Sequence record: OQ417970.1
Strand: one strand, 5' to 3'
Length of the DNA stretch: 64,000 bases
Source: Mycobacterium phage prophiT46-2
The position numbers were made by a program, and so were the translations under genes. Positions 20,836-23,353 of this stretch are shown in pieces (the first letter of the stretch is position 1; each line of letters opens with the position of its first letter). The notes beneath the pieces are model-generated. The model was not told the origin of the DNA, did not search any database, and was given only the letters and a program-made list of their open reading frames with translations.

Positions 20836-22290
20836 GTGTTCCCCATGGTCTCCGGGGACATCGATTCAGGCAACCATTACAAGGCATACTGGTGCCGTGT
20901 ACTGCAACACCAGCCCAACAAGCCGGTAGTTCAGCGCGCACGTCAGCGCGTCCGTGCCGCACTGGTCGCGGTCGCAGTCCTCGCGGTTGGGGCTGGCACG
21001 GTTCAGGTCGCGACACTGCACACGGCGCCGGGCAGTGGCTTCTCCACGCTGGCGACGGTGGGCGCGGAACCGACCGGCCCGCCGGGACCGACCGGCGGCA
21101 TGACCGACGGCGGGGGCTCTCAGTTCCAGCCTCCAGCGCAACCGCCGTCAATGCCGGACTACCAGGGTGGCAACAACTTACCGCCTCTGGATCAGAACTC
21201 GGGCATCTCAATTTACAATTCCGGCAATCCGCAAGCACCGCAGCAGGTTCCGGGTCAGCAGGGCGGGCAGCAGCCGCAGCAGAGCTGGGATCAGCCCGCG
21301 CACGGAACCCAGATGCCCAATTACTCCACGGCGCCGGGGTACACCCAGGGGCCGGGAAAGCCGAACCCTGATTATCAAGCGCCGCAGCAGAGTTCACCGC
21401 AGCAGGGTCAGCAGTCCCCGCAGCAAGGGCAGCAGCAGTCTCCGCAACAGAATCAAGAGCAGCAGCAGAACCAGCCGGAGCAACAGCAGCAGGAGCAGCA
21501 GGACCAGGGTGATCAGCAGCGGCAGCAGCGCTGCGAGGCGATGTCGCAACAGTTGGACCAGATCACCGAGACCGCCGGGCAGGTCGCCGATGTTGTTCAG
21601 CAGGTCGGTGATGCGGCCGAGGTCGTGCTGCCCAAGGGCGGTGGTGGATCGCTGGGCCCTGACGGTGAACGTTCGCCGGGCCGCGTACCAGTTCAACCGC
21701 TCGAGTGTGGTGACTGCCCGCCAGATCGGAAGCCACAGAATCCGTTCTGCAAGCTCTTCCCCAATGCAGGCGTCAAGCAGACGTGCGAGGGCTTCATCGA
21801 CGACTGGATGGAGAACTTCAAAGACTCATGCGAGCCCGGCAAGCCGAATTGCAAGGGCAAGGTTCCGATCTGCTATCCACGAGACGTGACCAATCCTTCC
21901 GACGCCATGAAGAAGAGTATGCAAGATTATATTGACGGCGGAAATAAACTCATCAGGGATAATGAAAAACTCGGTGGTCAAGTCATCAAACGTTCAACCA
22001 ACGGTTTGAGCGGCAGACGTGAGGCCGATAAAAAGCTGGCCAATTTGAGATATGGCGAGAAAGCGTTTGACGGTAAGGCGTACGGTCATATACCGGACCT
22101 GACATGGATGGGAACAATCCTTGATGAACGTGATGTCATTCCGTTCGACAAGGACCTCAATTCCTCTATAGGCGGTCAGTCCAATAGATTCAAGACCGAT
22201 TTTCAAGCTACAGAGTTTGTCGTCGGGTACTGGGGCTCCGTGGTCGGTTCCAAGAACACGCAATGCCTCGCGCCCGAGGCGGTCGCGTGA
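20836..22290 (+). CDS. Membrane-anchored Gln/Pro-rich protein with Cys-rich middle domain and compositionally foreign (low-GC) C-terminal domain; polymorphic-toxin-like
   Basis: N-terminal TM (VRAALVAVAVLAVGAG); long CAG-repeat-encoded Q-rich linker; last about 400 nt clearly AT-richer. Confidence 0.5.
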   Translation: MFPMVSGDIDSGNHYKAYWCRVLQHQPNKPVVQRARQRVRAALVAVAVLAVGAGTVQVATLHTAPGSGFSTLATVGAEPTGPPGPTGGMTDGGGSQFQPPAQPPSMPDYQGGNNLPPLDQNSGISIYNSGNPQAPQQVPGQQGGQQPQQSWDQPAHGTQMPNYSTAPGYTQGPGKPNPDYQAPQQSSPQQGQQSPQQGQQQSPQQNQEQQQNQPEQQQQEQQDQGDQQRQQRCEAMSQQLDQITETAGQVADVVQQVGDAAEVVLPKGGGGSLGPDGERSPGRVPVQPLECGDCPPDRKPQNPFCKLFPNAGVKQTCEGFIDDWMENFKDSCEPGKPNCKGKVPICYPRDVTNPSDAMKKSMQDYIDGGNKLIRDNEKLGGQVIKRSTNGLSGRREADKKLANLRYGEKAFDGKAYGHIPDLTWMGTILDERDVIPFDKDLNSSIGGQSNRFKTDFQATEFVVGYWGSVVGSKNTQCLAPEAVA

Positions 22291-22295
22291 AAATC

Positions 22296-22808
22296 ATGCC
22301 TTCAATCAGAGAGAAACTAGGTGGACGCACACGCTTCGCCGCTGTCGCGCTGGCCTGGGTAGCAACGATTGCCATCGCATCACTGGTGACCTACGTTCTG
22401 TGTATGCAGCACCCGAGTGCCACATCCGAGAAATACGACGCTGAAGTTCGTGCGGTGATCGAGGAGTACATCGACGCCATAAACAGGAGTGATCTTGCGC
22501 GTATCGAAGCTCTTTCGACCGGCACGGCAGAAGAGCAGCTAAACCCGCAATTCAAGGGTGGATACGTCCGCATTATGGCACTAAAGATTGAAGACCACGG
22601 CCCGATGCATATTCACGATTTCAGCATTCTGGCACGGGGCGACCTTGTCTATGATGCGCTCGTCTATACCGAGTTCGAGGACCAGAAAAACCCGAAACCC
22701 GAAGACATCTACTACTACACCGGGTCACGAGTTCGGTACAGCATGTACAGGCTCAACGGACAATGGAAAGTCATGAGTGTCGAGACATTCAGGGCCGACG
22801 CCAAGTGA
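22296..22808 (+). CDS. Membrane-anchored NTF2/SnoaL-like protein (candidate immunity partner)
   Basis: N-terminal TM; ...NGQWKVMSVETF NTF2-like ending; lower GC; starts 6 nt after upstream stop. Confidence 0.45.
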   Translation: MPSIREKLGGRTRFAAVALAWVATIAIASLVTYVLCMQHPSATSEKYDAEVRAVIEEYIDAINRSDLARIEALSTGTAEEQLNPQFKGGYVRIMALKIEDHGPMHIHDFSILARGDLVYDALVYTEFEDQKNPKPEDIYYYTGSRVRYSMYRLNGQWKVMSVETFRADAK

Positions 22809-23353
22809 ACCGAGCCAGCAGCACCGTGATTGTGGGGATAGCGGTTTCCGTGCTGACGCTGCCGGGCTGCCAGAGCGCCCAGCCGGCAGAGCCTCCCGGA
22901 CCTAACTACGCGAAGATTCCTGGACAGTTCCCCGAACCCGCGACCACGACGACAGCGGGAGCAGAGGACGCCCCGGTGGGCTCATGCGTCAAGATCACCG
23001 GGAAACGTACAAACGCGGAAATGGCGCTCACCAAGTGCGAATCCCCCGACGCCACACACCGCATCGTTCAGAGGGTCGTAGAGCCCAAAGACTGTGTCCG
23101 CGACGTCGATCGGCGCTACTACCGAAACACCTCAGCTGGCGAATGGACCGCATGCCTGGACCTGTACTGGGCCAACCCCGGCTGCCTGAGCATCACCGAC
23201 GAAGCCACCCGCGCAGTCCCATGCAACGACACCACAGCTCCAAACCGATTCCGCGCTACCAAACTGGTAGTCGGCGTATCGAATGGCGACATGTGCAAGG
23301 GATATGCACATCCGGTGCGTCGGTTCACTATCTGTACGGAAATGCAGAAGTAG
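22805..23353 (+). CDS. Lipoprotein (lipobox LTLPGC) with 8 Cys
   Basis: GTG at 22805 overlaps upstream stop; signal peptide plus lipobox. Confidence 0.45.
   Translation: MNRASSTVIVGIAVSVLTLPGCQSAQPAEPPGPNYAKIPGQFPEPATTTTAGAEDAPVGSCVKITGKRTNAEMALTKCESPDATHRIVQRVVEPKDCVRDVDRRYYRNTSAGEWTACLDLYWANPGCLSITDEATRAVPCNDTTAPNRFRATKLVVGVSNGDMCKGYAHPVRRFTICTEMQK

Follow-up and report, generated by a model that had tools for sequence, protein, structure and literature searches.

A Probable Polymorphic Toxin Cassette without ESX Signals in the Mycobacteroides abscessus Prophage prophiT46-2

Within a 64,000-nt stretch of the Mycobacterium phage prophiT46-2 record (OQ417970.1; the whole stretch is referred to below as the window), three co-oriented genes, designated A, B, and C, occupy positions 20836-23353. 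We consider it probable that together they form one cassette of a polymorphic toxin system, a system that lacks ESX signals and is as yet undescribed in mycobacteria. Proteins related to gene A share an N-terminal trafficking region that precedes many unrelated C-terminal toxin domains (tips), and the adjoining downstream partner gene changes with the tip. A first-pass annotation of this DNA had already recognized the signature of a toxin/immunity cassette, and our comparisons bear this out through approximately 30 tip clusters, swapping at one prophage slot, and a tip-specific partner. The window is part of a prophage of Mycobacteroides abscessus that falls in cluster MabL (called AD under the newer scheme; cluster names taken from PMC9934374 and PMC10654092), and the related prophages prophi88-1, prophiGD43-6, prophiT48-1, and prophiT49-1 are 93-96% identical to it across most of its length. 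The cassette comprises the following features:

20836-22290, + strand: gene A, an open reading frame (ORF) of 484 aa; alternative ATG start at 20845
20956-21012, + strand: hydrophobic helix of gene A, residues 41-59, AALVAVAVLAVGAGTVQVA (Kyte-Doolittle 19-residue mean 2.13)
21016-21531, + strand: Pro/Gln/Gly-rich module (stalk) of gene A, residues 61-232, placed by composition and conservation across loci
21532-21819, + strand: pre-toxin region of gene A, residues 233-328, placed by blastp alignment ends, Cys positions, and alignment
21820-22287, + strand: toxin tip of gene A, residues 329-484, predicted to be a nuclease domain; its family has no Pfam model
22084-22179, + strand: predicted active site, G417-H418-I-P420-D421-L-T-W424-M-G ... 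L-N442-S-S-I-G-G-Q448, from invariant columns and the structural model
22296-22808, + strand: gene B, an ORF of 170 aa
22805-23353, + strand: gene C, 182 aa from GTG 22805; the longest ORF begins at 22763

Results

The Gene A Family Joins One Front End to Many Tips

A word-indexed search of 5.8 billion proteins (E<=1e-3) returned 284 relatives of gene A. Approximately 17 of these are full-length, and the rest match only the N-terminal 25-60% of gene A, at 50-84% identity, with local alignments that stop at residues ~220-303. The C-terminal remainders of the best 120 of the 284 relatives fall into 30 clusters. Precomputed Pfam domains on family tips include Amidase_2, Glyco_hydro_19, Phospholip_A2_3, Peptidase_M10, and Abhydrolase_8, together with ADPrib_exo_Tox, PF15533, DUF2599, and PF22322; a Pfam scan of ten other tips found nothing but one weak DUF6861 match. 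When one genome per species was sampled, 24 family loci were found in Mycobacteroides and close 'Mycobacterium sp.' isolates, with up to five in a genome. A gene A relative is also carried by 102 viral contigs in IMG/VR, from which 78 complete toxins form 15 tip clusters. The family is present outside prophages as well, at non-phage chromosomal sites (for example, beside dnaG) in hundreds of genomes. All family clusters whose names were looked up are called hypothetical or uncharacterized protein. Gene A itself shares 96% identity with P0001, a hypothetical protein of M. abscessus, matches phrog_30921 (a family that gives no function), and matched no family in Pfam, NCBIfam, or PADLOC.

Some members depart from the single-helix plan. 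Three giant proteins of 1005-1081 aa (L018 3972-6989, L025 269-3514, and L029 3843-7010; M. franklinii CV002) have a polytopic N-terminal membrane domain in place of the single helix, retain the Pro/Gln module, and continue through a long Gln/Ser/Ala-rich region to C-termini that resemble GH19 or lytic-transglycosylase-type peptidoglycan hydrolases; none has an LppU-like gene downstream. Because the giant members exchange the helix for a polytopic domain and keep the module, their architecture suggests that the Pro/Gln module serves as a stalk behind a membrane anchor. Other loci differ in their surroundings. The 61-kb viral contig IMGVR_UViG_2795385927_000002 holds two family cassettes (L043 and L054), one near each end. 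A small HTH_58 (PF19575) gene, which may be a local regulator, lies just upstream of a phospholipase-A2-type toxin (L006 3038-3271) and of an ADP-ribosyltransferase-type toxin (L007 1868-2113), both at non-MabL sites.

Gene A Begins with a Putative Export Helix and a Low-Complexity Stalk

The N-terminal transmembrane (TM) helix, the CAG-encoded Gln/Pro linker, and the Cys-rich module that the first-pass annotation had described in gene A were all found. An Arg-rich tail precedes the hydrophobic helix, and an equivalent hydrophobic segment is present in 120 of the 120 gene A relatives listed. We infer from these features that the helix is a Sec signal-anchor or a cleavable signal and that gene A is exported. 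Tat export was also considered, since many relatives have GLRR before the helix; the corresponding residues of the window protein are R-V-R, and a twin-arginine signal thus cannot be called a family feature.

Gln makes up 27% of residues 61-232, Pro 16%, and Gly 14%, and CAG accounts for 25 of the 52 codons for residues 181-232. Landmarks along this stalk are PGSGFS, PTGPPGPTGG, MPDYQGGNN-PPLDQNSGISIYN, and HGTQMPNY, after which come the CAG-encoded Gln runs. The stalk is 71-98% identical between loci with unrelated toxin tips, which suggests that it is the common stalk or trafficking part of the toxin family. The pre-toxin region contains a predicted helical segment (RCEAMSQQLDQ...), the Gly-rich VLPKGGGGSLGPDGERSPGR, and a Cys cluster (CGDCPPD...C...C), and many relatives with other tips share it to about residue 300. 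Nine Cys lie between residues 233 and 477 of gene A, seven of them within 291-346.

The Tip Resembles Beta-Beta-Alpha-Metal Nucleases

An exhaustive HMMER search with residues 285-484 against 1.84 billion representatives (E<=1e-3) identified 43 proteins that carry the tip domain, at or near the C-terminus in nearly all cases. By their Pfam domains the carriers include RHS-repeat, DUF4280 (PAAR-like), WXG100+PT-TG, and PT-HINT proteins, and in these carriers no Pfam model covers the tip domain itself. Only a His, a Pro, an Asp, a Trp, and an Asn (H418, P420, D421, W424, and N442) are invariant in an alignment of 32 diverse copies. The actinobacterial branch has extra conserved Cys, as would be expected if the domain folds extracytoplasmically.

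The AF2 model of the tip is confident (pLDDT 94, pTM 0.87). In this model, His418 ends a beta-hairpin strand and Asn442 opens the next helix, which is a beta-beta-alpha-metal layout, and the best structural neighbor is NucB, so that the predicted fold would place the tip with the NucA/NucB nucleases of the beta-beta-alpha-metal (His-Me finger) type. Searched against the PDB, the tip profile matched only the Ntox15 effector Tde1 (8fzz, E 0.46), aligned on HNPD...NSSIGSQ; H418-I-P-D421 is thereby paired with the HNPD of Tde1, an instance of the HxxD motif of Ntox15/Tde. Foldseek also ranked Tde1 top, at weak scores (E 0.27, TM 0.34), and the Pfam model Ntox15 (PF15604) matched 3 of the 32 tip relatives weakly (best E 0.0012). 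Gene A gave no Ntox15 match at the gathering score, gene A and the 32 relatives gave no match to the Pfam models DNase_NucA_NucB or Endonuclease_NS at E<=1, and a single-sequence search of the C-terminal half of gene A against the PDB returned chance matches only. The Mg-dependent DNase activity of Tde1 requires both the His and the Asp of its HxxD (PMC10470768); PD(X)3GG shows full conservation (PMC13556189). Based on the model and the alignments, the tip appears to form a toxin-domain family of its own, new among beta-beta-alpha-metal nucleases; it combines a NucB-like core with a Tde/Ntox15-like HxPD motif and is predicted to have nuclease activity. The first-pass annotation had left this domain without a family. 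It indeed has no Pfam model, and its fold can now be provisionally placed as NucB-like. The structural-protein type of domain that the annotation had named as evidence against a toxin was not what we found: the domain is nuclease-like and also ends RHS, PAAR-like, WXG100, and HINT toxins.

Gene B Is a Candidate Immunity Protein of the Nuclease-Type Tip

In the genomic and phage loci, all 7 nuclease-type tips have gene B directly behind them, and none of the 22 other tips does. The same holds for the IMG/VR loci (18 of 18 and 0 of 60), for a pooled linkage of 25/25 nuclease tips versus 0/82 other tips. The genomic/phage set consists of 29 loci with an intact family toxin and the IMG/VR set of 78 toxins; for the genomic/phage set alone, Fisher's p is 6e-7, a statistic that overstates independence because the loci are related by descent. 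Identity of gene B homologues to the window copy (70, 41, 39, and 31%) falls in step with the identity of their tips. The gene B family is narrow (16 clusters), and all of its source-named homologues come from Mycobacteroides. Beside other tips the genes change with the tip, and they mostly encode multi-pass or single-pass membrane proteins or lipoproteins, with few that look cytoplasmic.

Gene B has one helix (residues 17-35) with four positive charges before it and a net negative charge after it. This arrangement predicts an N-in topology with the domain outside the cytoplasm, i.e., a partner that appears to be exported rather than cytoplasmic. Close homologues are named 'nuclear transport factor 2 family protein' by NCBI. 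The NTF2-clan matches of gene B itself are all weak or sub-threshold (DUF4864, DUF4440, SnoaL_2, and Lumazine_bd_2); it also aligns with approximately 20 ketosteroid isomerases (E 0.02-0.07) and with Rv0361_Cterm (E 4e-6; 27 bits, under the cutoff of 37). Gene B had been described as a membrane-anchored NTF2/SnoaL-like protein; the anchor is plain from its one TM helix, and the NTF2 part draws on sub-threshold matches that agree with one another. Zhang et al. 2012 (PMC3482391) list an NTF2-fold immunity family for those NucA-type toxins of the HNH fold that show a GH/N signature, and the pairing of the tip with gene B thus has a precedent, though gene B gave no match to the Imm-NTF2 model. Taken together, the comparisons make gene B a candidate cognate immunity protein of the nuclease tip.

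NTF2-like exported proteins may recur in the toxin family beyond gene B's own family. In the ADP-ribosyltransferase-type cassette of L007, a cytoplasmic-looking 140-aa gene comes first after the toxin, and the second downstream gene (4869-5351) encodes a lipoprotein that is SnoaL/NTF2-like by eye.

Gene C Is an LppU-Family Lipoprotein That Diversifies with the Tip

The GTG at 22805 is more likely than 22763 to be the true start of gene C, because it overlaps the TGA of gene B (GTGA) and gives the protein an ordinary lipoprotein signal, MNRASSTVIVGIAVSVLTLPG/C (ending LPG/C), with the lipobox L-P-G-C. The close homologue P0179 is likewise 182 aa long. Gene C scores 42 bits against the LppU/SCO3897 domain model NF049863 (cutoff 25) and 96.5 bits against the LppU equivalog model NF049864, under its cutoff of 135; it is therefore a member of the LppU/SCO3897 family and not an LppU orthologue. 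A profile built from gene C detects a homologue <=1.7 kb downstream of 21 of the 29 family toxins and of 68 of the 78 viral-contig toxins, whatever the tip type, and in some of the cases where the homologue seems absent, the gene right after the toxin encodes it as a fusion, downstream of a multi-pass membrane domain. Where two cassettes have homologous tips, their gene C copies share 59-95% identity (median 79%); where the tips are unrelated, the median is 45%, while the stalk stays at 71-98%. Since its similarity tracks the relatedness of the tips, gene C travels and diversifies with the cargo. Its predicted structure is an all-beta, Cys-rich domain (pLDDT 92). The first-pass annotation was correct to call gene C a lipoprotein, as the lipobox and the LppU/SCO3897 match indicate, and the gene is no incidental one, since it recurs family-wide. 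Judging from its distribution and divergence, gene C is a conserved, co-diversifying third component of the whole toxin family and not a bystander, perhaps a cassette-matched envelope adaptor, a release factor, or a second layer of protection.

The Cassette Is Exchanged between Prophages and Is Compositionally Foreign

Comparison with close prophages, which the first-pass annotation had proposed as a check, shows that the N-terminal part of gene A is kept and that the C-terminal domain and downstream gene vary. The DNA of prophi88-1 (the same here as prophiGD43-6) and of prophiT49-1 is ~95% identical to the window from 23556 onward, and on the left flank it is 81-93% identical in patches up to ~20494. 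Within the slot, the sole DNA similarity to prophi88-1 and prophiT49-1 is the stalk-coding segment 21028-21425 (75%). The slot in prophi88-1, prophiGD43-6, and prophiT49-1 holds a 361-aa toxin that joins the same N-module to a glycine-zipper-like tip, followed by a 76-aa membrane protein and a 195-aa LppU-like lipoprotein. prophiT48-1 has a diverged tip of the same kind as the window; the N-terminal 300 residues of its gene A are nearly identical to the window protein, and whole-protein identities are 62% (A), 41% (B), and 61% (C). The entire cassette is found at another genomic place in prophi79-1, an unrelated MabQ prophage, with 83, 70, and 81% identity for A, B, and C, respectively.

The cassette genes are labeled 'hypothetical protein' in these prophage records, save gene 45 ('oxidoreductase') and gene 46 ('lipoprotein LpqN') of prophiT48-1 (OQ417964; region 7261-8386). 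Both of these annotations are probably wrong: gene 46 in fact belongs to the LppU/SCO3897 family, and gene 45 is annotated from 7393, while the ATG at 7261, right after the toxin stop, restores the membrane helix seen in all homologues.

Base composition marks the same part of the locus. GC content is 0.516 for residues 301-484 of gene A, 0.536 for gene B, 0.609 for gene C, and 0.665 for the Pro/Gln module, compared with a mean of 0.642 (sd 0.031, 500-nt windows) for the whole window. The minimum over the 64 kb (0.506, at 21701) is approximately 4 sd under the mean, well outside chance, and falls on the toxin tip and gene B. GC is thus not uniform across the locus, and the C-terminal part of gene A is markedly AT-richer, as had been claimed; the AT-rich stretch is, however, approximately 180 residues long and not 130.

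Genetic Surroundings and Expression

ORFs and annotation agree with the earlier placement of the three genes between the early genes and the packaging module. The cassette lies ~21-23 kb into the ~66-kb prophage, with replication and recombination genes upstream and, downstream, a ParB-N/DNA methylase gene (23587-24813) and the large terminase gene (24782-26347). The ATG at 20845 is an equally plausible start for gene A, and the homologue P0001 begins MASGD. Gene B, which shares the lower GC, starts close behind gene A as first described, after a spacer of 5 nt (gene A stop to gene B ATG). This 5-nt spacer and the GTGA overlap of B and C indicate translational coupling of the three genes. Two further features bracket them:

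20657-20706, + strand: strong hairpin with 17-nt arms and a 16-nt loop (inverted repeat 94% complementary), just after the stop of an upstream small ORF and 130 nt before gene A
23375-23389, + strand: terminator-like hairpin with a T-rich tail, from a consensus scan, 22 nt after gene C; weak, with a count not above chance for the region

The RNA fold of the left hairpin has -32.9 kcal/mol (z -3.8, equaled by 0 of 200 shuffles). This hairpin lies at the left edge of the variable cassette, as homology to prophiT48-1 ends at 20651 and homology to prophi79-1 begins at 20744. It may be a terminator or insulator of the mycobacterial type that lacks a U-tract, or an operator. Hairpins on both sides give the cassette a moron-like layout.

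Several neighboring features deserve mention. A 58-aa ORF with two hydrophobic segments (23360-23536, + strand) lies between gene C and the methylase gene and may belong to the variable cassette; it is kept as gene 47 in prophiT48-1, and prophi88-1 and prophiT49-1 have a 380-aa reverse-strand membrane protein in its place. The product of 23587-24813 (+ strand) fuses a ParB N-terminal domain (sub-threshold, 23.8 bits versus a cutoff of 26.3) to an N6/N4 DNA methylase, and its gene overlaps the start of the terminase gene by 32 nt. In many other prophage backgrounds, at L003 (6659-7465), L008 (6325-7134), and approximately nine further loci, a ~268-aa protein of repeated helix-turn-helix-like units (RRWTADELAVALDRSLS, with a faint HTH_23 match) is encoded directly after the cassette; the L003 and L008 copies are 89% identical, and the toxin tip and middle gene there are wholly different. 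The prophiT48-1 counterpart of window positions 1-25000 is annotated with an 'EccC-like translocase', a RecT-like protein, a RepA-like initiator, and a PAPS-reductase-like protein; the EccC/FtsK-like ATPase is of note because the same type of prophage also bears an ESX-dependent toxin.

Discussion

A Model for Envelope-Directed Toxin Delivery

In the mechanism that we propose, gene A would be inserted into the membrane or exported via Sec by its N-terminal helix, and the ~170-residue stalk and Cys-rich pre-toxin segment would carry the toxin domain into or through the cell envelope. The tip would be a disulfide-stabilized beta-beta-alpha-metal nuclease with His418, Asp421, and Asn442 as likely catalytic residues and most likely would cut DNA. 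Gene B, as a single-pass membrane protein with its NTF2-like domain in the same extracytoplasmic compartment, would neutralize this tip, and gene C would be an envelope-located adaptor with a role in release or second protection, diversifying together with toxin and partner. The tip, B, and C are exchanged among prophages and chromosomal sites, probably through recombination that has its left end in the stalk DNA and its right end in gene C or the sequence flanking it; such exchange would explain the foreign, AT-richer composition of the tip and gene B. The export helix, the Cys-rich tips, the envelope-degrading tips, and the long stalk together suggest that the toxins are Sec-exported, held or passed on by the stalk, and neutralized in the envelope of the producer. 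By our own estimate (~0.35 nm per extended residue), a stalk of ~170-240 disordered residues is long enough to span the mycobacterial envelope. The likely benefit would be killing or inhibition of related mycobacteria that lack gene B. EatA/EatI of M. abscessus (PMC13444075), with an exported immunity protein and inter-mycobacterial killing, provides a precedent for both.

Several observations weigh against this interpretation. No sigma-70-like promoter was found in 20300-23700, by a consensus that fits mycobacterial promoters poorly. Most prophage genes outside the repressor and att-proximal cassettes are reported to be silent in lysogens, including strain GD43A (Dedrick et al. 2021, PMC8092301); since GD43A carries a sister prophage, this silence makes lysogenic expression of the cassette doubtful. 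The nuclease assignment combines moderate structural scores with weak sequence scores, the matches behind the NTF2 fold of gene B are all weak, and the tip-B linkage counts loci of shared descent. The gene C model has no PDB neighbor, and we found no literature on its function. Finally, an exported immunity protein is unusual for a DNase with a cytoplasmic substrate: either gene B would stop the tip before it enters the cytoplasm, or the substrate would not be chromosomal DNA. A more far-reaching version of the model, which we offer tentatively and consider rather doubtful, is that the cassette represents the first Mycobacteroides-specific, Sec-dependent three-component delivery system, in which the anchor and disordered stalk thread the tips through the mycobacterial envelope and a cassette-matched LppU lipoprotein presents, releases, or guards them. 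Since almost all partners in the family, including that of the nuclease tip, are exported, the tips may in this version act from the periplasmic side, the 'nuclease' perhaps cutting an envelope phosphodiester in place of DNA.

Other roles for these genes must be weighed against a toxin system. Prophage-borne secreted DNases are established in streptococci, and gene A could be a secreted or surface housekeeping or virulence DNase acting on extracellular DNA (in biofilms, nutrient DNA, or NETs), with gene B as its regulator or inhibitor in the manner of B. subtilis nucA-nin. The best structural neighbor of the tip, NucB, is itself a secreted biofilm-degrading nuclease, gene A has an export signal and a disulfide-rich domain, and gene B, being extracytoplasmic, is better placed to regulate an extracellular enzyme than to protect DNA in the cytoplasm. 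We nevertheless judge this role unlikely, because the tip domain also ends inter-cellular toxin scaffolds of the RHS, PAAR-like, WXG100/PT-TG, and PT-HINT types, the same N-module bears approximately 30 unrelated tips, each with a tightly linked small partner, and a free extracellular DNase has no need of a partner that co-varies strictly 1:1. A second alternative is a host-directed role, in which the cassette would be an effector module against amoebae or macrophages, like CpnT/TNT of M. tuberculosis, with B and C as chaperone, inhibitor, or export helpers. Phospholipase A2, ADP-ribosyltransferase exotoxin-like, and M10 metalloprotease tips have activities typical of proteins that act on hosts, and a host role for WXG-type prophage toxins has been left open (PMC8092301, PMC10654092). 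However, the peptidoglycan amidase, GH19, and transglycosylase-like tips have only bacterial targets, tip-specific and mostly envelope-located partners fit self-protection from an activity that harms bacteria, and strain-to-strain turnover of the cassette at one prophage slot is a hallmark of kin competition, which makes a host-directed function quite improbable.

The position of the cassette, co-oriented between the early and packaging genes and with no recognizable promoter, would also suit genes that serve the phage itself, expressed with the lytic genes as envelope- or DNA-degrading lysis helpers or acting in superinfection exclusion. Many family tips degrade the envelope, and prophage membrane proteins can exclude other mycobacteriophages. 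Yet lysin A and lysin B are already encoded elsewhere in the window, family members occupy non-phage chromosomal sites in hundreds of genomes, no PADLOC defense model matches A, B, or C, hairpins bracket the cassette in the manner of a moron, and tips such as ADP-ribosyltransferase are not suited to lysis; we regard a phage function as highly improbable. A polymorphic toxin cassette remains the explanation that we favor.

Relationship to Known Polymorphic Toxin Systems

The M. abscessus prophages carry another toxin system, the phage-encoded PEST cassettes (formerly PT-Imm, now PEST1-3), each made up of an ESX-secreted polymorphic toxin, an immunity protein, and a WXG100 protein; they have WXG100 N-termini and an ESAT-6-like gene and are att-proximal (PMC8092301, PMC9934374, PMC10654092). 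PEST and the gene A system share hosts and prophages, a conserved N-terminus, many C-terminal toxin domains, a tip-matched downstream partner, and exchange between prophages, and some PEST immunity proteins are also lipoproteins. The gene A system differs from PEST in its N-terminus, a hydrophobic export helix and Pro/Gln-rich stalk; in its position mid-genome before the packaging genes, not beside attL or attR; and in its conserved LppU-family third gene. Gene A gave no WXG100 match at E<=1, and its neighbors are B, C, and a 50-aa ORF, with no ESAT-6-like gene among them. By 93-94% identity to annotated prophiGD43-6, prophi88-1, and prophiT48-1, the right end of the window (~50000-64000) contains lysin A, lysin B, and a WXG100-type PEST cassette. 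One prophage hence holds two unrelated polymorphic toxin systems.

In concept, the closest system to the A-C cassette is S8-PTS of Gram-positive bacteria, a Sec-dependent three-component system of a signal peptide-BetaH-toxin protein, an immunity protein, and an S8 peptidase (PMC9424270, PMC13556192). Both have signal-peptide-type export, a conserved N-module with polymorphic and often nuclease tips, and a third accessory gene besides immunity. In the A-C cassette, however, that accessory gene encodes a Cys-rich lipoprotein with a fold without PDB neighbors, and no S8 peptidase (PF00082) was found in any family neighborhood examined. A folded BetaH domain in gene A seems unlikely given that the conserved module is low-complexity Pro/Gln/Gly sequence, although no BetaH model was compared.

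The tip shares with Ntox15/Tde, which is paired with Tdi immunity proteins in Agrobacterium, Bacteroidales, and Bacillota (PMC4096383, PMC10470768, PMC13556189), the motif H-x-P-D-(x3)-x-G followed by N-S-S-I-G-x-Q. Like Ntox15/Tde, it is a C-terminal domain found on several delivery scaffolds, and by analogy it would be expected to have Mg-dependent DNase chemistry. In contrast, the tip is predicted to be alpha+beta with a NucB-like core, whereas Ntox15 is mostly helical (Foldseek TM 0.34), and gene B is exported and NTF2-like, not of the Tdi type; the Tdi motif P(Phi)4GG is not evident in gene B by eye, in the absence of a systematic check. Compared with NucA/NucB and with Tox-NucA/Imm-NTF2 (PMC3482391), the gene A tip domain adds helices at its N-terminus, its actinobacterial branch carries conserved Cys pairs, and gene B differs from Imm-NTF2 in being membrane-anchored and outward-facing. 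What appears to be new here is a trafficking module and architecture for polymorphic toxins, together with a family of nuclease tips.

Implications for M. abscessus

The differences between strains of M. abscessus, a drug-resistant pathogen, stem largely from prophages. Not until 2026 was it demonstrated that mycobacteria compete by means of toxins (PMC13444075), and the literature that we searched recognizes only prophage toxins of the ESX/WXG100 type. If our interpretation is correct, a second and equally widespread arsenal has been overlooked, one that extends over more than 280 protein clusters and 102 viral contigs and has several paralogues in a genome. It would comprise a new trafficking module with approximately 30 tip types, most of which (~25 without assignment) lack a known family, and a new nuclease-toxin family whose immunity protein is, unusually, exported, and it would give the uncharacterized LppU/SCO3897 lipoproteins their first functional context. 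Such a system would have a bearing on competition between strains in the cystic fibrosis lung, on prophage carriage in phage therapy, and on how proteins may cross the mycomembrane independently of ESX.

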